Source of the DNA: Prorocentrum cordatum
Taxonomy: Eukaryota
Reading direction: 5' to 3'
Length of the DNA stretch: 64,000 nt
Assembly: GCA_963575745.1 (NCBI GenBank)
Contig: CAUYUJ010000061.1
Coordinates: 1 to 64,000, forward strand
Shown: piece by piece, positions 20,783-63,817 of the stretch
Layout: the number at the start of each line of letters is the position of its first letter
Numbering within the stretch: position 1 is the stretch's first letter
The notes under the pieces: generated by a model
The model's input: the letters and a program-made list of their open reading frames with translations, nothing else
Database searches by the model: none
What the model was told of the DNA's origin: nothing
Translations under genes and position numbers: made by a program

Positions 20783-20813
<31 letters not shown>

Positions 20814-21020: not shown

Positions 21021-21270
21021 CTCGTGCCCGGTGCGTTGCCGCGCCGGCTGACGTCGATCCTATTTTCGCATGCTTGTCCATCTGTACATGTCTACATACA
21101 GGTGCGCTGCCACGGAAGCATCGCTCTCGCGCGCTGGAAGACGCCTTGAAACTCATACATGTATGTGTTCATTCTATTATTGGAAATAAATTCACCGTGC
21201 GCATTCCAGAGATATGCATGGACTTATGACACGTGGCTAGGAGCTCTACGAGGTAGCCATTTTGGCTCAA

Positions 21271-21306
21271 GGAAGCTCTACGAGGTGTCCGGCGGTAACC
21301 TGGTTG
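21271..21306 (+). other. Helentron 3' subTIR, left hairpin arm and loop (LINE target; right arm displaced to 27051-27083)
   Basis: GGAAGCTCTACGAGGTGTCCGGCGGTAACCTGGTTG matches intact ends such as 44419-44476. Confidence 0.9.
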
Positions 21307-21698: not shown

Positions 21699-22820
21699 AT
21701 GGCGCTTCCAGTGTCGGGCAGCCGGCGCAAGAGAGAAGACGACGGGGCTGAGGGCATGGACGCTGAGAATGTACTAGATGCTGATATCCACGGATTGGCT
21801 TTTGATGAACAGAATCCCATGAAGCAATTCTTCGAACTGGGAAAGCAGCAACTGCAGCAGCAAAGAATTACTGACCGCAAGGTGACAGGCATGGTTAACG
21901 ATATGGCTACCATGCAACGACGGCAGGATAGTGCTGAACGACGAATGGCTGAAGGCCAGGCTCAGATGGATAAACGAATGACAGATCTTGAGAAGCAGGT
22001 CTTAGAGCTCAAGTCGCATACTGCTGCAGGTTCTGGGGCATCCACTGGTGCTACTTCTGCTGGCTTTGGGGGTGAGGCGACTTGGCCAAACGAGAGCAGG
22101 CGTCCATTCCGAGCCTTCAATCCAGAGTGGATCGATTTTCGTGGATGGGTGATTGACTGGAGTAATCCGATTCGACGGTCAGAGCAAATGATTTCAGATC
22201 GGGACGTGGGCATTCTCATTCACAACTTGAAGATGAGCCTTCCAGAGGATGACCGTGCGAAGATTGACGAGCTTGGTACGCTTCGTATGAATGGGAATCG
22301 TCCCAACTACGCAAACTTCCGCATCAAGTTTACCACTGGTACTGAGTCAGACGTACTCTGGAGGTGCAAAAAGTTTTGGGAAGAAGCTCTGATACCGCCT
22401 GAGGATCGAACTGAGGAGCAAAGGTCTCTTGCCCGTCCGACACCACAGGATCTTTTCAAAGACATGGACAACAGACCGTGTGCGGCTGGAGGCTCCATTC
22501 GGATCAAGACACAGGCACCGCCATGGAAAGAGGACCACATCAATGCTGTTGGCAGATTCCATGGTGTGTGGCGCGATACGGTCGTTGCGAGGAATCCTGA
22601 TACGCCAATGAAGATCAAGGGAGTGCCTGGGAGTGGAAAGGGGGTCAGTGTGATGTGGACCATTCCCCCATGTCTCCGTACCAAAAGAAGCATGGAGCTG
22701 GCCAAGTGGAAACAGGATACGGGCACTTGGACTGTTGATCAGACGGTCTGGAACGAAGTTGTCATGACATACGGCATCGCCACGACCCACAAAGAAATGG
22801 AGGATGCACTCGGACAATGA
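21699..22820 (+). CDS. LINE ORF1 protein (coiled coil + unknown globular domain), 373 aa
   Basis: ATG start; heptad-like N-terminal segment; blocks shared with family 2 ORF1 (NPMKQxF, FxP..GW, PWKxxHxxAVGR). Confidence 0.85.
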   Translation: MALPVSGSRRKREDDGAEGMDAENVLDADIHGLAFDEQNPMKQFFELGKQQLQQQRITDRKVTGMVNDMATMQRRQDSAERRMAEGQAQMDKRMTDLEKQVLELKSHTAAGSGASTGATSAGFGGEATWPNESRRPFRAFNPEWIDFRGWVIDWSNPIRRSEQMISDRDVGILIHNLKMSLPEDDRAKIDELGTLRMNGNRPNYANFRIKFTTGTESDVLWRCKKFWEEALIPPEDRTEEQRSLARPTPQDLFKDMDNRPCAAGGSIRIKTQAPPWKEDHINAVGRFHGVWRDTVVARNPDTPMKIKGVPGSGKGVSVMWTIPPCLRTKRSMELAKWKQDTGTWTVDQTVWNEVVMTYGIATTHKEMEDALGQ

Positions 22821-22844
22821 GGGTGCTGCGAGAGATCCAAAAGC

Positions 22845-25800
22845 ATGGCTCTCGCTACTCTCGCGGCAGGCACACTCAATGTTGCGAGAGCTGGGCGGCT
22901 CGAGTCTCGGGCGTACGCTATTCTACGAGCACTACATGGGGTAGGCTTAAATGTTGTGGCTTTGCAAGAATGTCAAAACGTGGACTTCAATGACACCTTA
23001 ATTCAGCGTCTGGGGTGGGATGCTGCTTCAAAAAGTACTTGCATGCGGGCAGCGGTGCTTCTCAAACGTCGCCACCTGCCCCACATGATAGCCTCTTATC
23101 AAGCAGATCGGGTTGCGATGATTGTTCATCGATCGGGAGTTTGTTTCACTAGTGCTTACTTTGCTGATGCGTCTCATCCAGATGCTCCAGAGATATGCAG
23201 ACGGATACTGCATGATGTACGCCGCCTGCACCGACAGGCTCAGGCCAACCATGGCCATCACTTTCGCCTGTTGCTTGCCTGTGATGCCAATGTGGAGCTC
23301 ACGCCAGAGTTGGAGGTGGATGGGAGGAGGGTGACGGGACCAGGACTCAGAAGATCGAGGGAGAGGGGACTTGGTCGGAACGGTGCCATCGATTTGGAGG
23401 ACAGGAGGGCCAAGGAGGTGTGCATGAGGGACCAGATTGAGGAGTTCTTGGAGGAGGAGGAGCTGGCTGCGATCAACACTTTTGAAGCACGGGTGCCGAC
23501 CTACTGGCACTTCGGTGAGAGTGAGCCCACAAAGGTTTTAGATTACATCTTGGCGCCCAGGCAGTGGACAGTAGAAGATATCTCGTACAGTTGGTTGCAG
23601 GACGGGCGTGTGGCACGTTTGAGCGATCATGCAGTAATCAAAACCCTGTTGGCCCCAAGGGAACCCCAGCAGATGTACCGACACAAGGTTGTTCGGCCAC
23701 ACGTCACGGCACGCCGGGCATTCGAGTCCCACAGAGAGGAGTTCTGTTTCAGAGCGTTGGTGGACATTGGTATTGAGGCCACACGCCCTGACGAGATCGC
23801 GAAGTCGTTGCATCAGCATGCGTTGCCTCTGCTTAACCCGCCTTCCTCTGCGCATCGTGCACATGCTAAGTCTAAAGAGCTAGCAGATCTTCAGCATCAG
23901 TATCGTGGAGCCCGTGGGAATCCTGATGAGAGAAAGCGCCTGAGGGAACTTATGAGGCCCCTGGTCAAGGCAGATAGGCGTAGTGAGATCGAGTATACCT
24001 TCGCGAACTCCCGCAAAAGCAAGAAAGTGAATGTCAAGTCTCTGAAGATCGACGGGGAGATGACGGAGGATCGTAAGAGGTGGGTGGAGGAGGGGATGAA
24101 GCAGCACAGCTTGAACACGATGACGAGCGAGGAGGAGAGGATGAGGAACAGCGAGCTGGTATCTGACTTACGGCGACGTGCACGAGCAGCTAGGGCACAC
24201 AGCAGCAGCAGTACGATGCACGACATGCGCATGCAGCTCACGATGGGGGTGGTGAACGAAGCACGTGCACGATTGCGATCTGGCAAGAGCTGCGGCCCAG
24301 ATGGGGTCAGCGTGGAGCTCTTGAAGGCTTTGGCGTGGCGAGCTGTTCGCCAGATTTTCCATGTGTTTCGAGATATCTTTCAAGGTGATCGTCGGTCACC
24401 TGACTGCTGGAGAGAGGTACTCATCACGCTGATGCCCAAGCTGATGAATCTTGATTCGCTCACACAAACACGCAATCTAGTTGTACAGAACACGTTAGGA
24501 AAATGGTACCTCACCTGTGTTACTATCCTTATCGAGAGGCATGCTGAACAGTACATGGGGCGATTGGGCTTGTATGGTTTCGCACAGGATCGGAGGACGT
24601 GGGAAGTAGCGGGACCCCTTAAGGCCATCTCACAGCATGCGAGTGTTTGGGGGAAAGATAGAAAAGCGTTCTTCTGTTCATGTGATATAGCACGAGCCTT
24701 CGACCATGTTAAGCTCACTACTTTGGCACGCGCGATGCACATGCTTAACATACCTGTACAGCTACAATATGCTCTGATCGAGCCCTTAACTGACACGACG
24801 GGCACGCTCACGTTCGAGGGCCTGGAGTTAGGTGGGGTACGATGGGATCGATCTCTCAGAACGGGGGGTACCGAGTCTCCCCTGTGCTTTAATTTGGTTG
24901 TGTTGGCCATGTGGGCGGAGGTCATACAGAGGTGGGATAATGAACGTATAGGTGTGGAGATCCCGTACAGCAACATGCACGACATGACGCGCGCACATGT
25001 TTACAATCATGCGATTTGGGCAGATAATATATATCTCGTGGCCAGTACATCGGCTCAGATGCAGCTGATGATCAACACACTCACTCACGCTTTACGTACA
25101 TGGGGACTAGAGTGGAAGTCAGATTCACTTGAATCGATGGTGGTGGGCGACCGCGATACCACTACTTTCTTCGCTGATATCCAGGGGGTGCAGGTCCCGT
25201 TCAAGTCAGTCTCTCAGCTGAATGTGTTGGGAACGATCGTCTCGCAGCAGTATGGGGGCACGCACGAGGACATACAATTTCGGGTTGAGTGTGCACGGCG
25301 CGCGTTTTATGGGCAAGCTAAGTATTATCGTTGTCGTGCTCTCCCTCTTCGTAAGCGGTATCGTCGGTATCAGAGCCTGGTACAGAGTGTATTAGCATAC
25401 GGATTGGATACATGTACGCTGGACCCTGAAGGTGTTCGATTGCTGCATACCTTTGAGGGCAGATGCCTGCTGGCCATGCATTGTCGAAGGAAGCCTGCGG
25501 GACAGAGATGGGAGGTCTGGAAGCCACATATGCTTGACACAGCGAGGGCTTCTTTCTGCTCGCTGGGATTTCCTAGCATCGTCCAGATCGTGGCGTGGAA
25601 GAGTTGGAGCGTCGCGCATTCGGTAAGCACGGCCTACGGCAATTTTGACTTCACAAATCCTGGGCCTCCCCGGTGGACAGGCCCAGGTTCAGGAGTAAGT
25701 TGTGAGGATGGGGTCTCGAGCGGCTCTCAGCAAAATGATGGCGCTGACGGCCGACGTGTTGTACGCAAGATTGAGCCACATCCTGATACCACGAGACGTG

Positions 25801-26867
25801 CATTTGTTGATTCTCGCACGGCATTGCTTTGTACACACAAGACTTGGGAAGCGCACCGCATGGCTCTCACTGAATGTCTCCGCTGTCATGGAGATCGTAG
25901 GCGTGCCTCTGAAGGCAAACGGCTGCGCGCGGGAGGAGATAGTGTTGGGCAGCGGTCTTGGCAGTACCCGTACATACAGACTCATGGGGATGAGTGGTGG
26001 GAGACCTTCCGACCAGGATATGCCACATTTCTGCAGACATGGGAAGCACTTTTACGCACGTATGGTAGGCCTAAGATATTCGAGTACTTCTGCACGAATT
26101 GGAAACAGGTACCAGGAGGAGATGTTGGGAGAGAGTGTAAGGAGGGAACTGGAAGGAACGAGGAGGCGACGGAGGAGGAGAACATGAAACAAGCAAGACG
26201 GTTGGCGATTATTAATGAACGGGAAGCTGTATTTGATATCATGTCGAACGGAGTTGGAATTGAGATCAAGGGAGACTCTTTGTTGGTCCAGAGCTGGCTT
26301 ACGGGACGTTGGCGTTGTCATAATCGTGCATATCGTGAGCGTGTACACAGGTGTGTCAATGACATGTACGCGCTTAGCCTTTCACACCGAGCACGGGCAT
26401 CGAACGTTGGGAGAGACATATTTGTACATGAATTTCGTGAAGCAAACACCCGAGCAGACGAACTTACTCATTTGGCCAGGGATGGCCACACATTTCATCA
26501 TAACTATTGCCATCGATATCCTTTCGAACGAGATTCTTTGAAGGTAGTCGCCTGTCGTGGAGGGTACGACGGGGGAGTGTGCAGCAAGGGCAGTGCATGC
26601 GGTTACTGGATGCAGGTTGGCTATCTCAACATGTCCTCACGGGCGTCTCGGCATGGAGTGTGTTCTACACGATACTCCCCCTACCCGACCTCTTCCTCTC
26701 TACATTATCATGCTGACACACCGTTGATTTGGAGAGACGCTGCTGCTGCGGCCTGGCTGGAGCCAGGCGCCACGATCACCGAATGTGAGTTGTCCGCTGC
26801 CGAAGCATTGACACGTGCCATACGCATACAGCTACAGCAATTTGATGACAGTGATTTTGCTTCTTGA
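22845..26867 (+). CDS. LINE ORF2: AP endonuclease, reverse transcriptase (WADN), permuted RNase H
   Basis: GTLNV, LQE, DAN, LDY, SDH (APE); GPDG, DIARAFD, RTGGTESP, WADN (25017-25028), LG (RT); GDS...NTRAD...YDGG...ECEL (RNase H). Confidence 0.93.
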   Translation: MALATLAAGTLNVARAGRLESRAYAILRALHGVGLNVVALQECQNVDFNDTLIQRLGWDAASKSTCMRAAVLLKRRHLPHMIASYQADRVAMIVHRSGVCFTSAYFADASHPDAPEICRRILHDVRRLHRQAQANHGHHFRLLLACDANVELTPELEVDGRRVTGPGLRRSRERGLGRNGAIDLEDRRAKEVCMRDQIEEFLEEEELAAINTFEARVPTYWHFGESEPTKVLDYILAPRQWTVEDISYSWLQDGRVARLSDHAVIKTLLAPREPQQMYRHKVVRPHVTARRAFESHREEFCFRALVDIGIEATRPDEIAKSLHQHALPLLNPPSSAHRAHAKSKELADLQHQYRGARGNPDERKRLRELMRPLVKADRRSEIEYTFANSRKSKKVNVKSLKIDGEMTEDRKRWVEEGMKQHSLNTMTSEEERMRNSELVSDLRRRARAARAHSSSSTMHDMRMQLTMGVVNEARARLRSGKSCGPDGVSVELLKALAWRAVRQIFHVFRDIFQGDRRSPDCWREVLITLMPKLMNLDSLTQTRNLVVQNTLGKWYLTCVTILIERHAEQYMGRLGLYGFAQDRRTWEVAGPLKAISQHASVWGKDRKAFFCSCDIARAFDHVKLTTLARAMHMLNIPVQLQYALIEPLTDTTGTLTFEGLELGGVRWDRSLRTGGTESPLCFNLVVLAMWAEVIQRWDNERIGVEIPYSNMHDMTRAHVYNHAIWADNIYLVASTSAQMQLMINTLTHALRTWGLEWKSDSLESMVVGDRDTTTFFADIQGVQVPFKSVSQLNVLGTIVSQQYGGTHEDIQFRVECARRAFYGQAKYYRCRALPLRKRYRRYQSLVQSVLAYGLDTCTLDPEGVRLLHTFEGRCLLAMHCRRKPAGQRWEVWKPHMLDTARASFCSLGFPSIVQIVAWKSWSVAHSVSTAYGNFDFTNPGPPRWTGPGSGVSCEDGVSSGSQQNDGADGRRVVRKIEPHPDTTRRAFVDSRTALLCTHKTWEAHRMALTECLRCHGDRRRASEGKRLRAGGDSVGQRSWQYPYIQTHGDEWWETFRPGYATFLQTWEALLRTYGRPKIFEYFCTNWKQVPGGDVGRECKEGTGRNEEATEEENMKQARRLAIINEREAVFDIMSNGVGIEIKGDSLLVQSWLTGRWRCHNRAYRERVHRCVNDMYALSLSHRARASNVGRDIFVHEFREANTRADELTHLARDGHTFHHNYCHRYPFERDSLKVVACRGGYDGGVCSKGSACGYWMQVGYLNMSSRASRHGVCSTRYSPYPTSSSLHYHADTPLIWRDAAAAAWLEPGATITECELSAAEALTRAIRIQLQQFDDSDFAS

Positions 26868-27300
26868 TGATGTGTTATCCCTACGCCCTCCTGGGCTCGG
26901 GAATCGTCTTCAAGTTTAGCAATGTTATATGACACCTCAGCCCGCCTCCGTGGGTAGGTGCTCGTTTCACTGCTGCTCAGTTGCCAGGCTGCGTAGCTGA
27001 CACGGGCTGCGCTGAAGACCAGCGCCTCGCCAGCCCGCGTAAACACAAAAAACCAGGTTGACGGTTTACCGCCGGCGCCCAGTAATTCCGGGGAGCTGGA
27101 GAGCTAGTTGGCAACGAAAATCTCGACGGACCTTTTGCTGACTTTTGGTCGGTTGAAAATTTTGTTCGCGAAATTTGACCATTCGTTAGAGCTCTAGTAT
27201 TTTTCCCATGATATTCGATCTTATTCCCGCTCGCCATCTTGATCTCAGCTCGATCGGGTAACTTTGAAGGCCAAAAAGCAGGGGGGCGGGAACGGCCGTT

Positions 27301-28012
27301 TCGAGTCATCTTGATATGCGCTGACGGTTTTCTGAACATAACTCGAGCTCTAGGGCAGCTACAGAGCTGGTAAGCACAGCTAACTCATGCAGAATGATCA
27401 GGCGCGTTCGCCTGTTCAACCCAGAGGTCTGAACTCGGTCTGTCAGCTGAGCTAGGTTCGCAAACCTGTTTGTATTATTCGAGTCAACTTGACACGCGTT
27501 GTAGATATTTTCTACTTAACTCGAGCTATAGGGCAGCTACAGTGCCGGTGAGCACCCCTCTCGCTCTCAGAATGATCAGACGCGTTCGCCTGTTGAGTCC
27601 ATAGGTCTAAACTCGGTCTGCTAGCCGAGCTAGGTACGCAAACCTATTCGTATTATTCGAGTCAACTTGATACACGTTGTCGGTATTTTCCTCTTAACTC
27701 GAGCTGTAGGGCAGCTACCGCGCTGGTAAGCACCCCTATCGCACTCAGAATGATCAGACGCGTTCGCCTGTTGAATCCATAGGTCTAAACTTGGTCTGCT
27801 AGCCGAGCTAGGTGCGCAAACCTATTCGTATTATTCGAGTGAACTTGCTACGCGTTGTCGGTATTTTCCACTTAACTCGAGCTGTAGGGCAGCTACCGTG
27901 CTGGTAAGCACACCTACCGCACTCAGAATCATCAGGCGCGTTCGCCTGTTGAATCCAGAGGTCTGAACTCGGTCTGCTAGCCGATCGAGAATCACGAAAC
28001 TGTTCGTATTCT
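27301..28012 (+). repeat. 178-bp tandem repeat inside a type-A non-autonomous element (example; recurs through 27-62 kb)
   Basis: TCGAGT(C/G)A(T/A)CTTG recurs at 27301, 27479, 27657 and 27835 (period 178). Confidence 0.9.
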
Positions 28013-31000
28013 TCCAGTTAGCTTGAGAGCTACTGTCGGCGTTCTGCATTCAATTCGGGCTGTAGGGAGGCTGCAGGGCGGGTAATCACAGGAATCGATT
28101 CGGAGACATCAGACGCGTCCGTCTGTCGCATTCAGAGGTCTGGACTCGGTCTGATACTCGAGTTGGGCTCAAAAACTATTCGTTCTCTGCAATTTTTTCC
28201 GACAGTATATGTTGTCAGGAAGCTCTACGAGTCCCCCGGCGGTAACAAAGGTTGACGGTTTACCGCCGGCGCCCAGTAATTCCGGCGCGCTGGAGAGCTA
28301 GTTGGCAAGAAAAATCTCGACGGACCTTTTGCTGACTTTTGGTCGGTTGAAAATTTTGTTCTCGAAATTTGACCATTCGTTAGAGCTCTAGTATTTTTTC
28401 CCATGATATTCGATCTTATTCCCGCTCGCCATCTTGATCTCAGCTCGATCGGGTAACTTTGAAGGCCAAAAAGCAGGGGGGGCGGGAACGGCCGTTTCGA
28501 GTCATCTTGATACGCGCTGTCGGTTTTCTGAACATAACTCGAGCTGTAGGGCAGCTACAGTGCTGGTAAGCACACGTATCGCTCTCAGAATGATCAGGCG
28601 CGTTCGCCTGTTGAATCCAGAGGTCTGAACTCGGTCTGCTAGCCGAGCTAGGTCCGCAAACCTATTCGTATTATTCGAGTCAACTTGAACGCGTTGTCGG
28701 TATTTTCAACTTAACTCGAGCTGTAGGGCAGCTACAGTGCTGGTGGGCACACCCATCGCATGCAGAATCATCTGGCGCGCTCGCCTGTTGAATCCATAGG
28801 TCTGAACTCGGTCTGCAAGCCGAGCTAGGTCCGCAAACCTATTCGTATTATTCGAGTCAACTTGATACGCGTTGTCGGTATTTTCTACTTAACTCGAGCT
28901 GCAGGCCAGCTACAGTGCTGGTGAGCACACCTATCACACTCAGAATAATCAGGCGCGTTCGCCTGTTGAATCCAGAGCTCTGAACTCGGTCTGCTGCGCG
29001 ATCCAGACTCACGAAACTGTTCGTATTCTTCCAGTCATCTTGACAGCTACTGTCGCCGTTCTGCACCTAACTCGGGCTGCAGGGGGGCTGCAGGGCGGTT
29101 AATCACATGAATCGATTCGGAGACATGAAACGCGTCTGTCTGTCGCATTCAGAGGTCCGAACTCGGTCTGATACTTGAGTTGGGCTGAAAAATTATTCGT
29201 TCTCTGCAATTTTTTTTGACATTATGTGTTGTCAGGAAGCTCTACGAGTCCCCCGGCGGTAACAAAGGTTGACGGTTTACCGCCGGCGCCCAGTTGGCCG
29301 ACCCGACCAAAAGAGACAATGTGGTAACCTGGGGTCGGTTTTTGGAACATTGTGCAAGATTTGACAATTCGTTTTCATAAGTTGGATTTTTCCTACCTAC
29401 AATAAGATATGGCGCATCTGCTGGTAAAATTTTCAGGGCTCTAGAAACAATATTACTATCAAAAGACTTGCGGGAACCGACTTTGCCCGCAGTACAGTTT
29501 GGCAGGTGACGGTGGTTGGCTTTACTTAACTCGAGCTGTCAGCAAGCTACAGAGCATCATCAACAGCACAACCATCCGATGCAGAAAATCTGACGCGTCA
29601 CACGGAAGCTCGAGAGTTCCTAGAATTGCTGATTCAGGAAGTTATGCTCGAAATACTGACTCTATGCATGCGTGTTGCGGACGGTGTTTCGATGATTACT
29701 CGAGCTGGCTACATGCTAGGCATGTCTGGTACATTCAAATCGAAGCAGCGGCATACGAGACATCGAGTGGGAGCCACGAGAGTGCCTAAATTGATTCGAA
29801 TTGTCAAAATTAGTGAAAAATATAGATTTCTATAATTTGAATTTTTCGTGTCGGGTGATTTTTCGAATTTATGTCGATCTATGGGTGACCTAGAGAGTTC
29901 TGGTGCAGGTGAGTCGATGCAGAATGATCTCGCGCATCTCACTGTGAGCGCAAGACTTCATATGGATGGCTTCGCTGGTAGAACTGAAAAACTGCGCCTG
30001 TATAGACATGTCGACGACACAAAAAAATGCGTTTTTTCTGAATCATCTTTTTAAGCTTTTCCAGTGCTCTCAGCTTTGAGTTCTAAGCATTTTAAAGTTG
30101 TTTCTGACTTCGTGGAGCTCTACGAGGTCTTCCGGCGGTAACCTGGTTGACGGTTTACCGCCGGCGCCCAGTTATAGCTGGAAGCTAAGAGTAATTCCGG
30201 CGCGCTGGAGAGCTAGTTGGCACGAAAAATCTCGAAGGAACTTTGCTGACTTTTGGTCGGTTGAAAATTTTGTTCTCGAAATTTGACCATTGGTTGGAGC
30301 TCTCTTTCCCATGATATTCGATCTTATTCCCGCTCGCCATCTTGATCTCAGTTCGATCGGATAACTTTAAAGGCCAAAAAGCAGGCAGGCGGGAACGGCC
30401 GTTTCGAGTCATTTTGATACGTGCTATTGGTATTTTGTACTTAAATCGAGCTTTAGGGCAGCTATAGAGCTGGTAAACACAGCTATCGCACTCGGAATTA
30501 TCACGCGCGTTCGCCTGTTGAATCCCGAGGTCTGAACTCGGTCTGTGAGCCGAGCTAGGTCCGCGAACCTATTCGAATTATTCGAGTCATCTTGATACGC
30601 GTTTTCGGTATTTTCTACTTAATTCGAGCTGTGGGGCAGCTATCGTGCTGGTAAGCACAGCTATCGCACGCAGAATCATTAGGCGCGTTCGGCTGTTCGA
30701 ACCAGAGGTCTGAACTCGGTCTGCTAGCCGAGCCAGGTCCGCACACCTATTCGTATTATTCGAATCATTTCGATAGGCGCGCTCGCTTCCCTGCATATAA
30801 CTCGAGCTGTAGGACAGCTACAGGGCTGATAGTTACAGAAATCGATTCAGAACCATCAGTTGCGTTTGTCTGTCGAATCGAGAGCTCTGAACTCGGTCTG
30901 CTGCGTATTCTTCCAGTCATCTTGAGAGCTACTGCCGGCATTCTGCACTTAACTCGGGCTGTAGGGAGACTACAGGGCAGGTAATCACATGAATCGATTC

Positions 31001-32780
31001 GGAAACATCAGACGCGCCCGTCTGTCGCATTCAGAGGTCTGAACTCGGTCTAAGACTCGAGTTAGACTGAAAACTATTCGTTCTCGGCATTTTTTTCGAC
31101 ATTATATGTTGTCAGGAAGCTCTACGAGTCTCCCGGCGGTAACAAAGGTTGACGGTTTACCGCCGGCGCCAGTTATAGCTGCTAAGAGTAATTCCGGCGC
31201 GCTGGAGAGCAAGTTGGCAAGAAAATCTCGACGGAACTTTTGCTGACTTTTGCTCGATTGAAAATTTTGTTCTCGAAATTTGACCATTCGTTAGAGCTCT
31301 AGTATTTTTTTCCGTGATATTCGATCTTATTCCAGCTCGCCATCTTAATCTCAGCTCGATCGGATAACTTTGAAGGCCAAAAAGCAGGCAGGCGGGAACG
31401 GCCGTTTCGAGTCATTTTGATATGCGCTGTCGGTATTTTGTACTTAACTCGAGCTGTAGGGCAGCTACAGAGCTTGTGAGCACAGCTAGCGCACTCAAGA
31501 TTAATTCAGGCGCAGTTCGCCTGTTGAATTCCGGGAGGTCTGAACTCGGTCTGCGAGCCGAAGCTAGGTCCGCAAACCTATTATTCCGTATTATTCGAGT
31601 CAACTTGATACACGTTGTCGGTATTTTCTACTTGACTCGAGCTGTAGGGCAGCTACAGTGCTCGTAAGCACGCCTATCGCACGAAGAATGATCAGGCGCG
31701 GTCGTCCGTTGAATTCATAGGTCTGAACTCGGTCTGCTAGCCGAGCTAGGTCCGCCCCCCCCAAAAAAAAAAATATGGTTATTATTTATTATTCGAGTCA
31801 ACTGATACGCTTTGTCGGTATCTTCTACTCTAAACTCGAGCTGTAGGGCAGCTACAGTGCTGGTGTGCACACCCATCGCATGCAGAATCATCTGGCGCGA
31901 TCGCCTGTTGAATCCATAGGTCTGAACTCGGTCTGCAAGCCGAGCTAGGTCCGCAAACCTATTCGTATTATTCGAGTCAACTTGATACGGGTTGTCGGTA
32001 TTTTCTACTCAAATCGAGCTGTAGGGCAGTTACAGTGCTGGTAAGCACACCTATCGCACTCAGAATAATCAGGCGCGTTTGCTGTTGAATCCAGAGCTCT
32101 GAACTCGGTCCGCTGCGCGATCTAGAATCACGAAACTGTTTGTATTCTCCCAGTCATCTTGAGAGCTACTGTTGGCGTTCTGCACTTAGCTCGGGCTGTA
32201 GGGGGCTGCAGGGCGGGTAATCAGAGGAATCGATTCGGAGACATCAGACGCCTCTGTCTGCTGCATTGAGAGGTTCGAACTCGGTCTGATACTCGAGTTG
32301 GGCTGAAAAACCATTCGTTCTCTGAAATTTTCTTCGACATTATATGTTGTCAGGAAGCTCTACGAGTCCCCCGGCGGTAACAAAGGTTGACGGTTTACCG
32401 CCGGCCCCCAGTTTTGGGTGGTTTTGCAATTTTTTGAAAGATATTTGACAATTCATTTTAAGAAAGCAGATTTTTCGCACCTGTAAACGATTATAAGGGC
32501 CTCTCTGTCTTAGTATGAGCTCTGTAGGCGCACTTTTACTATCAAAACACTTGGAGGAACCATCTTCATGTCGACACGAAAAAAAAAATCTTTCTTTTTT
32601 TCGAGAAATGCTTCCAGAAGCTCTCTCTTTCGACTCTGAGCACGCTTACGCGTGAAAGGAGCTCTACGAGGTTTCCGGCGGTGACCAGGTTGACGGTTCA
32701 CCGCCGGCGCCAGTTGGCAAGAAAAATCTCGACGGAACTTTTGGTGACTTTTGCTCGGTTGAAAATTTCGTTCTCGAAAT

Positions 32781-33180
32781 ACCTCGTAGAGCTCTTCGGC
32801 ATCGATGAGCTAGAGGAATTCCGGCGCGGGGTGGAGCTAGTTGGTCGACCCGACCAGAACGGACAATGTGACAACGTTTCGGTGGTTTTGCGAATTTTTG
32901 AAAGATATTTGACAATTCATTTTGAGAAAGCAGATTTTTCGCACCTGTAGTGGGTTATGACGCGTCCGCCAGTAAAATTTTCAGGTCCATAGATGTAGTA
33001 TTAATATCAAAACACTTGGCGGAACCGAGGTTGTATAAAAACAGAAAAACACGATTTTTCGATTTTTTCGTTTCTCGCCTCAGAAGCTTTCTCTATGTGT
33101 TCCGACAATCGCTGTGCAAGAAAAGAGCTCTACGAGGTTCCCGGCGGTGACCAGGTTGACGGTTTACCGCCGGTTCCAGT
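32781..33180 (+). mobile_element. Complete 400-bp type-B non-autonomous element inserted at T^T inside a type-A element
   Basis: 5' ACCTCGTAGAGCTCT / 3' AGAGCTCTACGAGGT + hairpin + CCAGT; the flanks rejoin as CTCGAAAT^TCAACAATTCG, seen intact at ~46478. Confidence 0.9.
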
Positions 33181-34937
33181 TCAACAATTCGTTTGAGCTC
33201 TAGTATTTTTTCCCGTGATATTCGATCTTATTCCCGCTCGCCATCTTGATCTCAGCTCGATCGGGTAACTTTGAAGGCCAAAAAGCACTGTGGCGGGAAC
33301 CGCCGTTTCGAGTCATCTTGACAGGCGCTGTCGGTTTTCTGAACATAACTCGAGCTCTAGGGCAGCTACAAGGCTTGGTAACATACTAAAATGCATGCAG
33401 AATGGATCAGGCGCGTTTTCGCCTGTTTGATCCCAAGGGCTGGAAACTCGGTCTGTCAGCCGAGCTAGGTCCGCCAAACGCTGTTTTGTATTATTCGAGT
33501 CCATGTTTGAATACGCGTTGTTCCATATAATTTTCTACTTAACTCGAGCTGTAGGGCAGCTACAGTGCTGGTAAGCACACCTATCGCACTCAGAATAATC
33601 AGGCGCGTTCGCCTGTTGAATCGATAGGTCTGAACTCGGTCTGCTAGGCGAGCTAGGTCCGCAAACCTATTCGTATTATTCGAGTCGACTTGATACGCGT
33701 TGTCGGTATTTTCTACTTAACTCGAGCTGTAGGGCAGCTACAGTGCTGGTAAGCACACGTATCGCACTCAGAATCATCAGGCGCGTTCGCCTGTTGAATC
33801 CAGAGCTCTAATTCGGGCTGTATGGAGGGCTGCAGGGCGGGTAATCACAGGAATCGATTCGGAGACATCAGACGCGTCCGTCTGTCGCATTGAGAGGTCT
33901 AAACTCGGTCTGATACTCGAGTTGGGCTCAAAAACTCTTCGTTCTCTGCAATTTTTTCCGACAGTATATGTTGTCAGGAAGCTCGACGAGTCCCCCGGCG
34001 GTAAGAAAGGTTGACGGTTTACCGCCGGCGCCCATCGATGAGCTAGAGGAATTCCGGCGCGGGGTGGAGCTAGTTGGTCGACCCGACCAGAAAGGACAAA
34101 GTGTTAACTTTTGGGTGGTTTTGTCATACCTCGTAGAGCTCTTCGGCATCGATGAGCTAGAGGAATTCCGGCGCGGGGTGGAGCTAGTTCGCCGGCCCGG
34201 CCTTAAGAGACAAAGTGATGACTTTGGGTCGGTTTTGCTGAGATTTGAAAGATATTTGACAATTATTTTTGAGAAACCATATTTTTCTCACGTGCAGTGG
34301 GTTATGCCGCGTCTGCCAGTAAAATTTTCAGGTCCGTAGCTGCAATATTACTATCGAAAGACTTGCAGGAACCGATTTTGGATGGAAACCGAAAAATCGT
34401 TCGGATCTCGCTTTAGAAGTTTCCCTGATCTGTTCTGAGGAGCGCCGCTGTGCAACAAAAGGACTCTACGAGGTGCCCGGCTGTGCAACAAAAGAACAAA
34501 AGGCTCAAGCTGCATTGTGCAGAAAGGAGTCTTTGGTTCCTCATACTGTACACGGTGCTTCAGTGTCTGTTTTGCCTGAGTACCGTACACGTTCAGTGAT
34601 TGTCGGAGTGCGCATTGACTGTTCAGATTGTCGGAGTACCGTGCGCTTTCATTGAGTGTCGAAGGCCTGTGCACATTCTTTGTGGTAGCCTACGAGTACC
34701 GTACACACTCATTCTTTGCTTGACTCAGATTCCCGCACGCGTGCTGCAGAGTGTCTTTTGCCTGAGTACCGTACACACTCTTTGGAGGTCGAGTTTGACA
34801 TCTGTTCAACACTCTTGTGAGGACATCTGTTCGACACGACGACAGATTCTAAGCGTTCGCGTGAGGACATCAATTTCTTGGAACAGTGGGGGTTTCCAGA
34901 GGAGCTCAAGTATTCGAACACCGTCACCTTCGCAGCG

Positions 34938-36014
34938 ATGTCTCAGCAACACCCAGCAGGTGCGCCCTGTTGTAAGAAGAGTAAGGCTGTGGGTGAGGAT
35001 GAGGATATGATTCAGGCAAGCAGTGTGGAGGAGGAGCAGTTCGGCGAATTTGATGACGGCAATCCTATGAAGCAACAGTTTGCTATGATGAAGGCTATGC
35101 TAGCTAAACAGAACACTCAGAAGAAAAGAATTTCACGGATTGAGCAGGATGTGAAACGGATCGACCAGCGTGGTGAGAAAAATGAGGCTGACATTGCTGC
35201 TATGCAGCAGCAGATCCGCTCGCTTCAGCAGAAGGGTCCACCCAGTGATGCAGGATCAGGGTCCACGGATGCTTGGAGTAACTATGCGGGCCCTGCGGGC
35301 TCCTCTGCTACGGCCACTGCTCCCAGGTATGGTAATCGTACGCCAATTCGCGAATGGAATCGAGTGCGGGAGGATTTTACACCGACCTTCAACCAACTCA
35401 CAGGTTGGGCGCGAGGTGGAGTCGGCAATCTCAAGACTCGTTCATCGGATATGCTCTCCTGGGATCATGCCCTGCCTGTCATTCGTAAATTTGTCCGTGG
35501 CACAGGAAAGATGACTGAGGAGCATTTCGACATGAGTAGGATCGAGCGGGAGCACAAAAATAAACCATATGGTCTTTATCGTATACGATTCTATGTTATA
35601 AGTGGCAAGTTGACGAACGATGAAATTTGGGAGATACGCAACTCTTGGGCCGTCGAGCTTGAGAATGACACGCACGACTTGAAGCAAGTCACTCCCATCC
35701 TGGCCAACAAGCGTCTCGGCGTATCCTGTGAACCAGCACCCTGGAAGCAGCCACATGTTTCTGCCGTGGGTCGTTGTCAAGCTATCTTTGCTACTCTCAG
35801 GAGTGGATCCCAGTGGCTGAAGGGTGAGATGGGTCCTCCTGTCAGCTATGTGTGGGGCTACCCTTCGGCCACGACGCCGAAGACGGATGGAGTATGCATT
35901 GCCGTGTTTGATCCTAACTTGGGGTGGAAGGTTGACGCCGAGCTGCTGCGTAAGGTCGATGACAAGTTGGATTGCGAGGTCTTTCTGGCCAAGCTCAACT
36001 TTCGTACCTGGTGA
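34938..36014 (+). CDS. LINE family 2 ORF1 protein, ~358 aa
   Basis: First in-frame ATG at 34938; coiled coil; APWKQPHVSAVGR aligns with family 1 PPWKEDHINAVGR. Confidence 0.85.
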   Translation: MSQQHPAGAPCCKKSKAVGEDEDMIQASSVEEEQFGEFDDGNPMKQQFAMMKAMLAKQNTQKKRISRIEQDVKRIDQRGEKNEADIAAMQQQIRSLQQKGPPSDAGSGSTDAWSNYAGPAGSSATATAPRYGNRTPIREWNRVREDFTPTFNQLTGWARGGVGNLKTRSSDMLSWDHALPVIRKFVRGTGKMTEEHFDMSRIEREHKNKPYGLYRIRFYVISGKLTNDEIWEIRNSWAVELENDTHDLKQVTPILANKRLGVSCEPAPWKQPHVSAVGRCQAIFATLRSGSQWLKGEMGPPVSYVWGYPSATTPKTDGVCIAVFDPNLGWKVDAELLRKVDDKLDCEVFLAKLNFRTW

Positions 36015-39000
36015 AGGTGCCATGGCGCCATCGTGGGCACGTATAACGTGAGGCGCTGTGGCAGCATGAACAGCCACGACATGCTTGCTCAGATCAAGAC
36101 CTCGAATTCGGAAGTTCTCGCTTTGCAGGAGTGCCAGTTCCTTGGAATAGGTAGGTGCTCTGAGCATGGTTTCACCTTAACTCTTTCTAATGATGGGAAG
36201 GCCGGGGTTCTCTACAAGAGGGTGTGGAGAGCCTCCATACGTGAATGCATCAGGGGTAATCGTTATGTCATTCTCGTGTTTCAATCGTTGATTGTTGCCA
36301 GCTTGTACTTACCACATGCGCCGAAAAAAGGGGATCACAATATCTTATTCACACAAACATTGCAGTCGTTTCGAAAGGATTTGGATACGCTCCGAGTTAG
36401 GTTTCCCAAGGAAGGGTGGGACTTGTTCATCGGGATGGATGCTAACGTTGAGCTTCTGCCTCACACGGTATTTGGAGATGTTGCTTTGACTGGTTCTGCA
36501 GTGCAGGGTGAGAGATTTGAAGAAGGGGACAATGCAGGAGGAGGTGGACGTGGAGGTTTCCAGCAGGGTAGGAGGAGGATGCAACAATACATGTGTGACG
36601 AGCTCTGTGAATGTATGTGGCATTATGATTTGGTTTTCTCGATTTCTTTTGGGACCCGTCGTACGACCTGGAAGGCCAGGGAGGAGACGGAGGAGGAGGA
36701 CAAGGTTCTTGATTACCTGTGTATTCCGAGCTCCTGGGAAAGGCCTCAGTGGGAGGTGTCGTGGTTAAGGCCAACACTCAGGGGCTCTGTGGACCCCAGA
36801 AAGACCCGCCTGTCGGACCATGCCCTGCTCACCTTGCTTGTCCCCGAATCGGCCGCTCCGACTCGACGTTGGAGAACGAAGCCACGACAAACGTTCACTC
36901 ATTGGTGCTGCGACGAAGCCTCGGAATTGCAAGTTTCGGCTAACCTTGATCGTCGTTTGCATGCTGCAGCTCGTTACCCATCTGGTCTCTGCCCGGATGA
37001 ATTGGCTCCTGTTATCTTGAATGCATGTACACAGGACAAGGAGTCATACACCAATGTCCCAAAGAAAATGCAGATCCCCAAAAAGACAGATCGTCATAAG
37101 GAACTTGATGATGAATATCGCCGACTGCGTCGTGAAGGAGGGGAGGAGGAGGAGCTCATCAGGGTTAAGAAAGAGAGAAGGAAGGAGATGCGTGCACACA
37201 CTCGTCGTCGACTCGAATACGATCATCGTGACGGGAAGCTCGCTCGGACGGTGGTGGACAAATTGAGTTATGACGATGTGCTCACGGAGGATAGGGAGTT
37301 GTGGGAGAAGGCGCTCTATGCTCACGGGTTCGCCAAGTACCACTGTGCTGCGCAAGGGATACGTAACGTGGAGTGTATCGAGGAGAGGAGGAGGAGGAGG
37401 TTGCAGGACACGAACACAGTGGACGTCTCCCCCATTTCCATGTCCGTATTGTTACAGGCACGATCACGCTTAAAGTGTGGTAAGGCGGTGGGTAAGGACG
37501 GAGTTTCTCCTTCTATGTTGAAACGTATCACGTGGGTAGGTTTGCGTCATATTCTTCGGTTATTCCAAGACCTGTATCTTCAACGGTATCCTACTCCTCG
37601 GATTTGGTCTGAGTTGCTTGTGGTGTTGATGCCGAAAGCTAAAGATATCACTAAGTTGTCTGATACTCGTGCTCTCGTCTTACTTAGCAGCCTAAGCAAA
37701 TGGTATACTTCATGTTTGGTTGAGATTGCTGAAGGTTATCTGAAAAGGGTCCCACAATATCTACATAACTACGGATTTTGCAAGGGAAGGCGCACGCACG
37801 AGATCACTGCCATGCTTAAGCATGCCACCACACACGCTCTGGAGTGGGGGAAAGATGAGACCCTGCACCTCGCGTCATTAGATGTGCAGACTGCCTTTGA
37901 TAACGTCACGGTTGAGAAGGCCAGTCGGGCCTTGGATGCCATCCCTGGGTTCCCCAATGACCTTGCGTTGGCGCTACTCGCTCCCAGTATCCTGGACACA
38001 GCGGACTTTACCTTTCAGGACTCCACGGCGACGGGTATTCCCTGGGATGCATGTGTACGTACTGGTAGTGTGGAGGCCCCCTTCCTGTGGAAGTGTGTGA
38101 CACTACTGATGTGGGATAGGATTGTACTGAATTGGGAGGAGGAGAAGTTGGGGTACGATTTGGGGGTGGAGGCTGGTGGGAGGTATCTTACTCATGCGCT
38201 CTGGGCCGATAACATTTTGCTTTTCTCGAAATCAAAGACTGAGCTCACACGTATGGTGGGGGACTTCTCGGCTCAGCTGTATACGCACGGTTTCAGATGG
38301 AAAGATTCCTCACTACACTATCTTGCCTTTGGGGAGGACTCTGAAGGCGCCTCGACGGGGAACCTCGTTGTCCAGGTGAACGATCTCGGTACCCTGTGTC
38401 TTCCGCGATGCTCTGAAATGGAGTGCCTGGGTTGCCTGGTCACGACCAAGACTGACAAACACCATGATGTGGCTTGGAAATTGGCTCGGGGTTGGAAGCG
38501 ATTTAACCAGTTCCGCAAGTTTTATACGAATCGTGCTGTACCCTTCCAGAAGAAAATCAAGCATTATGAATCTAGGTTGCGTAGTTTTGTACTTTTCGGT
38601 GTTGAAGGCATGCCAGCGGACCACCACACTTTGAAACAGTTGCACACGTGGGAAGGTAAAATATTGTGTTCTATGGTACGCCGCCCGAAACCTGCCGACA
38701 TGGATTGGAGTATATACTTATGCAACTTGTACAAACGTGGGCGGCGTATGCTCCTGGAATTGGGACGGCCGTCTCTTGTGCAGCTATTCTTGTTTCGTCA
38801 GTGGCAGTGGGCTCAGGACTGTACGTTTACTGTGAAACGCCTGAACCCAACACCCGCACAGATTCCTCCAGGTACTTTTGATTCTTCAGGCAAGCCTGGC
38901 CCCAACGTCTTTGCTGCGTGTGAGCCACCGCCGGCCAAGAGACAACGTCAGGATGAACCCATGTATGTGCTACCAAGTATTGCGTGCTCGACATCAATGG

Positions 39001-40193
39001 GATGTCATCCTGACGTGTGTGAGACGATGCATGCTGTTGATTCCTTTGAGCTCCCTGGTTCTCAGACACAATTACCCGCGCATCGGCGCAATCTGATTTC
39101 CCAGATGCATAAGCGTGCAAAGACATTCCATCCATCTCAGGATTCTCTGTCGCAAAAGCGTTCCTCTGTTGAGTTGCCGTCGCAGGAAATCGCTGCAAAC
39201 AAGCGGCGACGGGTGGCTCCACCTCAGCATCGTAGTACAGGGGACTCGCATATGCAGGCTAGAGAATGTATTTTTGCATGGTCGGGGGAGTGGACTGACC
39301 GACGGCAGGCCTTCATTGCATCGCTGCCTTGGAAAGAACGCCCATTAATGACGCGTCGGCATGAGGGGGGGAGACCACTGGCGTTGAGAAACTTCCATTA
39401 CATTTTCGAGTTGGTATCAGGGAAGGATTGGTATCACACGTTATCCTTTTCACGTCAGGGATGGAAAGAATTTCTGAAGCGGGCACTGGATGTTACTAAC
39501 ATGGAGGAGGCGTGGGGGTACTGTTACTTTAAACATGCACAACCTGCGGGATATGCTAGGGAGGAGGAGGAGAGGGAGAAGACGGAGGAGCAGCAAAGGA
39601 AGGAGGACGAGAAGATGGAGAAACGACTTGCGTACATTAATGAACATGCATCGGAGTGGAATGCGGAGCCTCGGGACTCGATACCGATGGAATTGATTGG
39701 GGACTCCGCCACAGGGGTGAATTGGATTAACGGTCTCTGGGCAACATCCAATATTATCTACAAGCACATTCTTGGCGACATTCAAAATAGGCTGGAGCAT
39801 ATCTCTGTGTTGTATGGTATGAGGCCTCCGAGTTGGGGCCACAATATGTTCAAGTGGATCTATCGAAAAGGAAACGAAAGAGCTGACAGGCTGACATGGT
39901 TGGCCAGAACCAAAAATAGTTACGTTACGTTCCATACCTCACTTATTGAACATGCGAGTAAAACAAAACTAGACGGCCTCCGTGGATTCTTCGACGGAGG
40001 TCGCTCTGTGGAGGGATGTGCTGCAGGATGGTGTATAGATTTGTGTGTACACGGGACGTGGCAGTTGGTGGCGGAGGAAGCTGTCTCGCTTGATGCCTCT
40101 GCTTCTGTCATGTTTTGTGAGATGATTGCAGCACAACGGCTCTGTATGGCCGTGGAGCACATTTTGGGTAGCATCTTTCATCCAAGCAGCTGA
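36015..40193 (+). CDS. LINE family 2 ORF2: APE, RT (WADN), permuted RNase H; no ATG before the first APE motif
   Basis: GTYNV, LQE, DAN, LDY, SDH; GKDG, DVQTAFD, RTGSVEAP, WADN (38202-38213); GDS (39699), NERAD, FDGG, CEM. Confidence 0.92.
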   Translation, partial: RCHGAIVGTYNVRRCGSMNSHDMLAQIKTSNSEVLALQECQFLGIGRCSEHGFTLTLSNDGKAGVLYKRVWRASIRECIRGNRYVILVFQSLIVASLYLPHAPKKGDHNILFTQTLQSFRKDLDTLRVRFPKEGWDLFIGMDANVELLPHTVFGDVALTGSAVQGERFEEGDNAGGGGRGGFQQGRRRMQQYMCDELCECMWHYDLVFSISFGTRRTTWKAREETEEEDKVLDYLCIPSSWERPQWEVSWLRPTLRGSVDPRKTRLSDHALLTLLVPESAAPTRRWRTKPRQTFTHWCCDEASELQVSANLDRRLHAAARYPSGLCPDELAPVILNACTQDKESYTNVPKKMQIPKKTDRHKELDDEYRRLRREGGEEEELIRVKKERRKEMRAHTRRRLEYDHRDGKLARTVVDKLSYDDVLTEDRELWEKALYAHGFAKYHCAAQGIRNVECIEERRRRRLQDTNTVDVSPISMSVLLQARSRLKCGKAVGKDGVSPSMLKRITWVGLRHILRLFQDLYLQRYPTPRIWSELLVVLMPKAKDITKLSDTRALVLLSSLSKWYTSCLVEIAEGYLKRVPQYLHNYGFCKGRRTHEITAMLKHATTHALEWGKDETLHLASLDVQTAFDNVTVEKASRALDAIPGFPNDLALALLAPSILDTADFTFQDSTATGIPWDACVRTGSVEAPFLWKCVTLLMWDRIVLNWEEEKLGYDLGVEAGGRYLTHALWADNILLFSKSKTELTRMVGDFSAQLYTHGFRWKDSSLHYLAFGEDSEGASTGNLVVQVNDLGTLCLPRCSEMECLGCLVTTKTDKHHDVAWKLARGWKRFNQFRKFYTNRAVPFQKKIKHYESRLRSFVLFGVEGMPADHHTLKQLHTWEGKILCSMVRRPKPADMDWSIYLCNLYKRGRRMLLELGRPSLVQLFLFRQWQWAQDCTFTVKRLNPTPAQIPPGTFDSSGKPGPNVFAACEPPPAKRQRQDEPMYVLPSIACSTSMGCHPDVCETMHAVDSFELPGSQTQLPAHRRNLISQMHKRAKTFHPSQDSLSQKRSSVELPSQEIAANKRRRVAPPQHRSTGDSHMQARECIFAWSGEWTDRRQAFIASLPWKERPLMTRRHEGGRPLALRNFHYIFELVSGKDWYHTLSFSRQGWKEFLKRALDVTNMEEAWGYCYFKHAQPAGYAREEEEREKTEEQQRKEDEKMEKRLAYINEHASEWNAEPRDSIPMELIGDSATGVNWINGLWATSNIIYKHILGDIQNRLEHISVLYGMRPPSWGHNMFKWIYRKGNERADRLTWLARTKNSYVTFHTSLIEHASKTKLDGLRGFFDGGRSVEGCAAGWCIDLCVHGTWQLVAEEAVSLDASASVMFCEMIAAQRLCMAVEHILGSIFHPSS

Positions 40194-52430: not shown

Positions 52431-53443
52431 AAGAAAGGTTGACGGTTTACCGCCGGCGCCCAGTTGGCAAGAAAAATCTCGACGGAACTTTTGCTGACTT
52501 TTAGTCGGTTGAAAATTTTGTTCTCGAAATTTGACCATTCGTTAGAGCTCTAGTATTTTTCCCGTGATATTCGATCTTATTACCGCTCGCCATCTTGATC
52601 TCAGCTCGATCGGGTAACTTTGAAGGCCAAAAAGCACTCTGGCGGGATCGACCGTTTCGAATCATCCTGATACGCGCTGACGGTTTTCTAACCATAACTC
52701 GAGCTTTAGGACATCTACAGAGCTGGTAAGCACAGCTAATCGATGCAGAATGATAAGGCGCGTTCGCCTCTTGAATCCAGAGGTCTGAACTCGGTTTGTG
52801 AGCCGAGCTAGGTCCACAAACCTATTTGTATTATTCGAGTCATCTTGACAGAAACTTTCGGTTTTCTGTACTCAACTCGTGCTTTAAGACAGCTACAGAG
52901 CTGATATTCACAGAAACTGATTCAGAATCGTCAGTTGCGTTTGTCTGTCTAATCCAGAGCTCTGAACTCGGTGTTCTGCCTGATCTAGAATCGCGAAATT
53001 ATTCGTATTGGTCGAGTCATCTTGAGAAGTGCCCTCGGTTTTCTTCACTCAACTTGCGCTGAGAGGGGGCTACAGTGCTGGTTGTCATATGAATCGATTT
53101 AAAGAGATCATGCGCGTCCGCCTGTCGAATCCAGAGCTCGGAACTCGGTCTGCTGCCCGAACTAGGTTCGCGAAACTATTGTATTGTTCGAGTCATCCTG
53201 AGAGATGCTGTCAGTTTTCTGCACTGACCTCGGGCTGTAGGGTGGCTGCGGGGCTGGTAATGACAGGAGTCGATTCGCAGACATCAGACGCGTCCGCTTG
53301 TCGCATTCAGAGGCCAAAAAATATTCACTATGCGTCAGAATGTTGGTAGGTGCTTTCGGTTCTCTGAACTTAAGTCCGAGCTTGGAAGCTCTACGAGTTC
53401 CCCGGCGGTAACCAAGGTTGACGGTTTACCGCCGGCGCCCAGT

Positions 53444-56664: not shown

Positions 56665-56728
56665 AAAGGTTGACGGTTTTTACCGCCGGCGCCCAGTTTC
56701 CCGGATAGCTCCTTGGAGAGCTGAGGGT

Positions 56729-63793: not shown

Positions 63794-63817
63794 GGGTGCT
63801 GCGAGAGATCCAGAAGC

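Follow-up and report, generated by a model that had tools for sequence, protein, structure and literature searches.

A 64,000-nt stretch of the dinoflagellate Prorocentrum cordatum (assembly GCA_963575745.1, contig CAUYUJ010000061.1, positions 1 to 64,000 of the forward strand; hereafter the window) carries two long interspersed nuclear element (LINE) retrotransposons whose reverse transcriptases (RTs) have an asparagine where the third catalytic aspartate is expected. Family A is a complete element with two open reading frames (ORFs), ORF1 and ORF2, at 21.2-27.1 kb of the window, and family B is a second ORF1 + ORF2 element at 34.0-40.4 kb. In both ORF2 proteins the catalytic motif C reads WADN. 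From alignments, a phylogeny and structure models, we conclude that the WADN proteins are probably active RTs that hold the catalytic metals with two carboxylates, the asparagine acting as a neutral ligand or forming a hydrogen bond. The xxDN form of motif C appears to be no defect but a conserved trait that marks a large and apparently active clade.

Asparagine in motif C of two diverged ORF2 proteins

The ORFs, motifs, element copies and repeat units described here lie on the + strand. ORF2-A (1340 amino acids (aa), 22845..26867) encodes an APE-type endonuclease, a reverse transcriptase and a C-terminal RNase H-like domain. Its motif A is S612-C613-D614 (24678..24686), in which D614 is the invariant catalytic Asp and S612 stands where WADD relatives have Lys/Arg. 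Motif B is R672-T673-G674 (24858..24866; Thr codon ACG) within SLRTGGTESP (residues 670-679), with Thr for the usual Gln, and motif C is W725-A726-D727-N728 (25017..25028; Asn codon AAT) within HAIWADNIYL (residues 722-731), with Asn for the second Asp of YxDD. ORF2-B (1386 aa counted from a GTG codon, 36033..40193) reads CVRTGSVEAP and HALWADNILL at the corresponding places, with motif B at R676-T677-G678 (38058..38066; T677 is ACT, 38061-38063) and motif C at W724-A725-D726-N727 (38202..38213; N727 is AAC). Over their whole length the two proteins share 26% identity (E 7e-107), and both score above the curated cut-off for Pfam RVT_1. A sequence-only reading of this DNA had reported both replacements, Asn for the second catalytic Asp and Thr for the motif B Gln, in two diverged open ORF2s; the translations and the profile alignment agree with it.

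A 15-member family profile aligned 'thllWADNvyl' with 'klsLFADDmiv' of human LINE-1 (L1) ORF2p (8uw3_A, E 1.6e-39), 'ggrqGGvetP' with 'gtrqGcplsP' and 'lslDVkqAFD' with 'isiDaekAFD'. Profile positions 6-702 aligned to positions 8-706 of the L1 ORF2p chain, from the endonuclease through motif C. When the nearest library proteins were aligned with phmmer, the YADD or FADD of canonical elements fell in the same four columns. We modelled the fingers-palm-thumb RT part of ORF2-A (residues 460-900, 24222..25544) with AlphaFold2, which gave a predicted local distance difference test (pLDDT) score of 94.4 and a predicted TM-score (pTM) of 0.90. In this model WADN occupies the turn that links strand 263-266 to strand 269-274 (numbering of the modelled part), the usual motif C hairpin. 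The best Foldseek matches of the model were R2 (E 1.4e-18 and 1.1e-17) and LINE-1 ORF2p (8sxt_A, query TM-score (TMq) 0.76), with RNA-dependent RNA polymerases (RdRps) of the hepatitis C virus (HCV) NS5B type far lower (E about 1e-9, TMq 0.42-0.49). Single-sequence phmmer against L1 ORF2p paired RTGG with RQGC and found the right place for the motif A Asp, but an insertion made it misplace motif C, setting the L1 FADD on 'NMHDM'. We rejected that placement because the profile alignment and the AlphaFold2 model put FADD on WADN; the NMHDM stretch is not conserved in ORF2-B or in the library protein P0001.

R2 proteins carry a C-terminal restriction-like endonuclease and are not known to have an APE-type endonuclease or an RNase H. 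They share the LINE-type RT fold with the window elements (PDB 9dou and 8gh6, the best Foldseek E-values), and the family profile matches their RT part only. Human LINE-1 ORF2p (PDB 8uw3, 8sxt, 9hdo and 8c8j) is the closest solved relative, with an RT fold TMq of 0.74-0.76 and the same order of an APE-type endonuclease followed by a LINE-type RT, with ORF1 upstream. It has FADD and RQG, whereas the window elements have WADN and RTG. Unlike L1, the window elements also have a C-terminal permuted RNase H-like domain and an ORF1 without a Pfam family. By gene content, they are two diverged families of APE-type non-LTR (non-long terminal repeat) retrotransposon with an RNase H-like domain. All RTs are said to keep three spaced Asp residues in an excerpt of PMC2148107. 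Because the third of these, a defining feature of canonical RTs, is absent from both A and B, the elements are a variant and not standard members. The change tells against canonical LINE RTs, and not against elements that behave as LINEs.

Spread, covariation and selection

An exhaustive protein-library search gave 2237 matches at E<=1e-3, from which the best 150 were aligned together with P0002 (151 proteins in all); it was used in place of a word-indexed search that had given 2 matches. Motif C was covered in 129 of the 151. It read xxDN in 77 (WADN 67, FADN 3, WSDN 3, WVDN 2, YADN 1, WFDN 1), xxDD in 47 (WADD 23, YADD 14, FADD 8, YSDD 1, WMDD 1) and something else in 5. Motif B was covered in 132 proteins, with Gln in 105, Thr in 22 and other residues in 5, and motif A, also covered in 132, had its Asp in every one (132/132). 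The first Asp of motif C never varied among the aligned representatives. When 58 sequences of the W-type clade were aligned, the only invariant columns were D155 (the motif A Asp), G215 (the motif B Gly) and D268 (the first motif C Asp), again in the numbering of the modelled part. Matches in the ESM Atlas were generic RVT_1 clusters only, and a scan of metagenome contigs with a single protein found no relative.

We built a maximum-likelihood tree from the 84 rows with a coverage of 300 or more of the 441 query positions, after removing the trait columns. Twenty canonical rows (19 Y/FADD and 1 FAEN) split from the rest (support 99, starred). A 57-row group held 43 DN rows, 13 DD rows and 1 other. 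Families A and B fell in a 5-row clade in which all members have WADN or YADN together with RTG (99, starred), and this clade is nested in an 18-row clade that is entirely DN (98, starred). The sequence-only reading had named a search for WADN RTs and a phylogeny as its check; these gave WADN in 67 of the 129 covered representatives and placed A and B in starred all-DN clades. On the tree, at least 5 changes are required for DN and 7 between Thr and non-Thr. A single origin of DN was rejected, since forcing a DN clade cost 172 log-likelihood units (approximately unbiased (AU) test, p 6.9e-5). Because both states occur in multi-member subclades and at least 5 changes are needed, D and N have interconverted more than once.

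The sequence-only reading had also allowed that WADN clades might already be described. Literature searches for WADN/YADN/FADN-type motifs in RTs or retrotransposons, with subscription journals and Repbase reports outside their scope, found no such clade, and searches on dinoflagellate non-LTR elements or ORF2 found no description of the motif. Literature matches to YADN concerned the E. coli gene yadN or were otherwise irrelevant.

Among the representatives covering both motifs, DN occurred with motif B Gln in 53 and with Thr in 18, whereas 46 DD representatives had Gln and 1 had Thr. Thr is thus nearly confined to the DN background (18/19). By these counts motif B Thr is not obligately coupled to Asn and is a later change that has arisen several times, almost only on an Asn background. 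The co-evolved variant active site of the sequence-only reading therefore survives in part: conservation and mostly synonymous variation point to a selected variant, but an obligate Asn/Thr pair does not hold, since most DN proteins keep Gln.

A column scan found another partner, the residue two before the motif A Asp (motif A -2), which we then counted over the 114 proteins covering both sites. Lys or Arg stood there in 21/24 WxDD proteins, as the commonest residues, and in 0/66 WxDN proteins, where Ser was commonest (32). The corresponding counts were 0/4 for Y/FxDN (Ser commonest, 3) and 3/17 for canonical Y/FxDD (Phe commonest, 12). A His three before the Trp was present in 59/72 proteins with Asn and in 9/40 with Asp. 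In this alignment the motif A -2 residue appears to be a better covariation partner of the motif C Asn than the motif B Thr is.

Thirteen DN representatives with mutual identity <=50% are open for at least 1000 aa. We compared four public sequencing runs with element A and listed the 40 best-supported of 252 differences, the further 212 not being shown. Of the listed differences 29 were synonymous and 11 were not; within ORF2 codons 478-867, the share was 20/23 synonymous, and none of the 40 fell in the WADN codons. A second copy of family A (62313..64000), cut by the window end, has the 5' untranslated region (UTR), an intact ORF1 and the first 60 ORF2 codons. Its ORF1 is 93% identical to ORF1-A in amino acids, with a nonsynonymous rate (dN) of 0.036, a synonymous rate (dS) of 0.155 and a dN/dS of 0.23, and its 60 ORF2 codons differ at 2 positions, both synonymous, so that the protein is identical. 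At the level of sequence, these comparisons show purifying selection acting on the ORFs. The two families also differ in their codons for the Asn (AAT and AAC) and the Thr (ACG and ACT), which we count, together with the long open frames, the synonymous differences and the spliced-leader relic described next, as consistent though indirect signs of function.

Directly 5' of the start of element A lies a relic of the dinoflagellate spliced leader (DinoSL), AGGTAGCCATTTTGGCTCAAG (21251..21271). It matches at 19/21 bases, and the match was reached in 0/100 shuffles. A 13-nt stub, GGAGCTCTACGAG, precedes the relic and repeats the element or unit start that follows. According to an excerpt of PMC12014239, which quotes the relic consensus CCATTTTGGCTCAAG, a relic of this kind is the mark of DNA that was copied from trans-spliced mRNA. 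It also identifies the host as a dinoflagellate. Two degenerate relatives, L005 and L007, have a DinoSL relic as well, about 3 kb upstream of their RT. As read from the DNA, an RNA-mediated origin is shown for at least one copy. Two copies of (G)GA(A)GCTCTACGAG flank the relic (21238-21283), and one contig of run X2 has a form without these 31 bases.

Proposed catalysis with two carboxylates and the alternatives

In the mechanism that we favour, the motif A Asp (D614) and the first motif C Asp (D727) would hold the catalytic metals, and Asn728 would replace the third carboxylate with a neutral side chain that forms hydrogen bonds or binds metal weakly. The lost negative charge would be balanced by the absence of the motif A -2 Lys/Arg of WADD relatives, its place being taken by Ser612, and the His three before the Trp would mostly have been gained alongside the Asn. 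We infer that the exchange of Asp + Lys for Asn + Ser is a charge compensation.

The same substitution at the same place has been made in the Ty1 RT, as D211N, the second D of YXDD. An excerpt of PMC2148107 reports that this mutant keeps polymerase activity in vitro and loses transposition, just as the sequence-only reading had stated. The same excerpt gives a 223-fold lower polymerisation rate (kpol), a preference for Mn2+ and RNase H suppressors that restore 5-10% of transposition. Since Ty1 D211N still polymerises in that account, polymerisation with two carboxylates is possible. Ty1 D211N is, however, a laboratory mutant of the RT of an LTR element, whereas the Asn here is the natural, conserved state of a LINE clade. 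Natural xDN motifs C are described in excerpts of PMC9752661 and PMC3121795, as ADN in birnavirus VP1 and GDN in the L proteins of negative-strand RNA viruses, and PMC9752661 adds that ADN lowers replicase activity. As in WADN, the last motif C Asp of these enzymes is an Asn at the same beta-hairpin apex. They are RdRps without sequence relationship to the WADN RT, however, whose best matches are LINE RTs, and the likeness is in chemistry only.

The sequence-only reading had named as its refutation a protein without RT activity whose young copies are mobilised by a YADD partner. In a wider form of this alternative, the WADN proteins are polymerase-dead, and a canonical DD (WADD or YADD) partner elsewhere in the genome mobilises the elements and the RT-less copies in trans. 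The excerpt of PMC2148107, in which Ty1 D211N cannot transpose, speaks for this, as do the WADD relatives in the same broad clade (23/129 covered). We nevertheless consider it unlikely. A dead domain would not be expected to keep 20/23 differences synonymous, the other two Asp residues invariant over 58 sequences and more than 1000 aa open in 13 lineages at <=50% identity, and the whole starred clade of 18 rows is DN only. Within the window both ORF2s are WADN and no DD RT is present in the 64 kb. The Lys/Ser covariation also argues against a dead enzyme.

Alternatively, a relocated acidic residue might supply the third carboxylate, so that catalysis would be of the canonical three-carboxylate kind. 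The candidate is the Asp four before the motif B Arg (WDRSLRTGG; D209 of the modelled part), which is invariant in 7/7 members of the close RTG subclade. In the 58-sequence alignment, which takes in most DN lineages, D209 belongs neither to the invariant nor to the 90% columns. It therefore cannot explain DN generally, and we regard this alternative as quite improbable.

Exaptation usually shows itself in a lost catalytic Asp. The RT domain could thus have been kept for a role other than DNA synthesis, such as Prp8-like RNA binding or scaffolding, or the ORF2s could have been domesticated by the host. The full LINE set has been kept, however, with ORF1, APE endonuclease, RT and an RNase H-like domain with four invariant acidic residues, and several copies are present in one window. 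The depth of the 3' part is high and uneven in public runs, and a spliced-leader relic stands at the 5' end. Just one of three Asp residues is changed, always to Asn, and the Lys/Ser covariation would again have to be explained. We therefore give this possibility very little weight.

RNA editing occurs in dinoflagellates, and a single transition at the first codon position (A-to-I/G, AAU/AAC to GAU/GAC) would suffice to restore the Asp from AAT or AAC, but edited mRNA as a template would give GAT/GAC copies, Asn is fixed across deep lineages with synonymous AAT/AAC codons, and the correlated loss of the motif A -2 Lys/Arg makes sense only if the protein has Asn, so that editing is scarcely credible.

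Several points weigh against the reading of WADN proteins as active two-carboxylate enzymes. Going by the excerpt of PMC2148107, the change that lowers kpol 223-fold and abolishes transposition in Ty1 would be expected to carry a cost here too unless it is compensated. Only 4 phylogenetically independent D/N pairs exist; the Lys/Arg column changes in the same direction in 2-3 of them and never in the opposite one, and with so few pairs the covariation cannot reach significance. The 151 aligned proteins are those nearest to the query and do not represent the 2237 fairly. The tree came from a quick search under LG+G4, with composition warnings and one long-branch warning, and the DN group for the constraint test was named only after the tree had been seen. 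A metagenome contig scan with a 7-sequence alignment found 7 loci, all ADN, but these do not count towards Asn conservation because the search pattern itself demanded ADN. The 40 listed differences mix copies, strains and perhaps species. No RNA run containing the element was found among the public sequencing runs listed; run X20, which is RNA only by guess, has pieces about 95% alike, which have no bearing on expression. Finally, the spliced-leader relic shows that an RNA was copied and does not show which RT did the copying.

Element structure, the repeat array and retroposition

ORF1-A (373 aa, 21699..22820) and ORF1-B (378 aa counted from a TTG codon, the first ATG being codon 21; 34878..36014) are homologous, with 24% identity (E 7e-14), so that ORF1 lies upstream of ORF2 in both families. 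Pfam had no family for ORF1 of A or B. The APE/exonuclease III-type endonuclease domain of ORF2-A spans 22845..23699 (limits approximate) and was recognised by the family profile, whose positions 6-238 match whole exonuclease III/APE1 chains (best E 1.9e-10) and the endonuclease of L1 ORF2p. ORF2-A alone gave a weak match to Pfam Exo_endo_phos, under the cut-off, and phmmer with the N-terminal 285 aa found no relevant match in the PDB.

In family A, ORF1 and ORF2 are in the same frame, with one stop followed by 7 codons before the ORF2 ATG (22818-22847). In family B they likewise share a frame, and ORF2 lies behind a single stop (36012-36035); no ATG occurs in it before codon 11, by which point the conserved N-terminal endonuclease motif GTYNV has already been passed. 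The shared frame, the single stop and an ORF2-B without an ATG before the endonuclease motif suggest read-through or reinitiation of ORF2. A 5' UTR block of about 80 nt, ..GCTGCATTGTGCAG..CATACTGTACACGGTGCTTCAG..TTTTGCCTGAGTACCG, is common to A (21360-21520), B (34500-34590) and the copies with RT-less ORFs (51151-51210 and 55322-55440). It has been kept between A and B although their proteins are only 24-26% identical.

The RNase H-like domain of ORF2-A (26157..26864) has its motifs in a circularly permuted order: GDS.., N..AD, then FDGG, then AE. The same order was seen in ORF2-B (39570-40190) and in P0001, P0004, P0008, P0009 and P0109. D40, D101, D138 and E211, counted within 26157-26864, are invariant in 15/15 sequences. 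In RNase H1 the DEDD tetrad is ordered beta1(D) - alphaA(E) - beta4(D) - alphaE(D). RNase H1 chains match the family profile (E 1.1e-12 and 3.8e-11) only by their C-terminal halves. The topology of an AlphaFold2 model of the C-terminal domain (pLDDT 86) reads as a circular permutation, in which we take the elements to be beta4-alphaB-alphaD-beta5-alphaE, then beta1-beta2-beta3-alphaA. Ahead of beta4 stands a degenerate extra alphaA-like helix that lacks the Glu, as a duplication followed by trimming would leave it. In VIA-align, RNase H1 chains reached a Z of only 3.4-3.8, over the first half, and the top rows were unrelated small alpha/beta folds (Z<=5.3). Pfam gave nothing for the C-terminal domain of A and RVT_3 at E 0.1 for that of B, neither above the cut-off.

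Between 27.05 and 62.3 kb the window consists of an array of about 16 units in head-to-tail order. The units that follow element A (27055..33975) have a head of about 220 nt, 178-bp tandem repeats and a tail, and the same units follow element B (40405-62300). Rfam had no family at the gathering score anywhere in the window, so no known RNA gene accounts for the repeated units. A and B occupy the same position within a unit, between ..GGCGGTAAC and ..GGTT(G/C)ACGGTTTACCGCCGG. Their 3' ends are A-rich (..AAACACAAAAAAC and ..CTCAAACTCAAAAAC), and CNGGTTG/C is repeated at both junctions of A, which might be a target-site duplication; the flanks could instead be parts of the element, given the joint of 21298 to 27055 in DNA runs. 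The unit start holds an inverted repeat, CCGGCGGTAA..TTACCGCCGG, and A and B both lie in its loop.

Two origins of the array may be considered. The units may be a satellite targeted by both families, which would account for flanks that are 80-97% alike around ORF2s that are 26% identical. Alternatively, the units may be internally deleted derivatives of the elements; DNA contigs joining 21298 to 27055, which bear on this, are present in two runs. In run X1 the summed depth of the 3' part was 54,646, versus about 100-150 over the ORFs.

Two RT-less copies lie in the array after element B. One (51179..52465) holds a 328-aa ORF (51151-52137). The other (55410..56698) holds a 348-aa ORF (55322-56368) and has in front of it a 5' UTR block akin to the one in element A. 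The sequence-only reading had taken such near-identical copies to imply recent retrotransposition. They do exist, at 99.5% identity over 1289 nt, but they are weak evidence for it: a single tandem array contains both, 4.2 kb from each other, their 5' extent differs, and their flanks are only about 74-85% alike. With this spacing and these flanks, duplication or conversion at the DNA level is possible, and the segments are compatible with 5'-truncated retrocopies or, equally, with local duplication or conversion. Their ORFs are 99.4% identical; the N-terminal part is rich in Ala and Arg, and the C-terminal part is helical. BLASTP matched them to neither ORF1-A nor ORF1-B, and Pfam gave only a sub-threshold Spc29 match. 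Each may be the ORF of a non-autonomous element.

Upstream of element A, a 4109-aa open frame (5670-17999) in DNA of 65-75% GC has PIF1-like helicase, APE-type Exo_endo_phos and ubiquitin C-terminal hydrolase (UCH) matches and a weak DUF6570 match; it presumably resembles a giant transposon protein of the Helitron/Helentron type. Between this GC-rich transposon ORF and element A lies a GT-rich low-complexity tract (18300-21050) with 8-14-nt periodic repeats, a GC skew of 0.49 and an AT skew of -0.69.

A broader picture can be offered tentatively, and we ourselves doubt that all of it will hold. Dinoflagellates might harbour a large, active two-carboxylate LINE lineage in which Asp/Lys and Asn/Ser(/His) have been swapped repeatedly in both directions at equal net charge, the third Asp being no metal ligand there. 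WADN enzymes, with spliced-leader relics on their own copies, would then be the long-sought machinery that drives the massive spliced-leader-tagged retroposition of dinoflagellate genes, and they may be tuned, in metal preference, speed or fidelity, to the cation-rich nucleus of these organisms.

Ty1 D211N, the sole D-to-N case to have been studied in depth, is crippled and was made in the laboratory. A diverse natural clade that toggles between D and N, retains Asn under selection and has a corresponding charge swap beside the motif A Asp offers a ready series of natural 'revertants' for asking what the third RT carboxylate does, with metal A binding, pyrophosphate release and translocation as candidate roles to probe. 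If they are active, WADN RTs might have an unusual metal dependence or fidelity of practical interest. For the biology of these organisms, they are a specific candidate for the enzyme that forms retrogenes in dinoflagellates.

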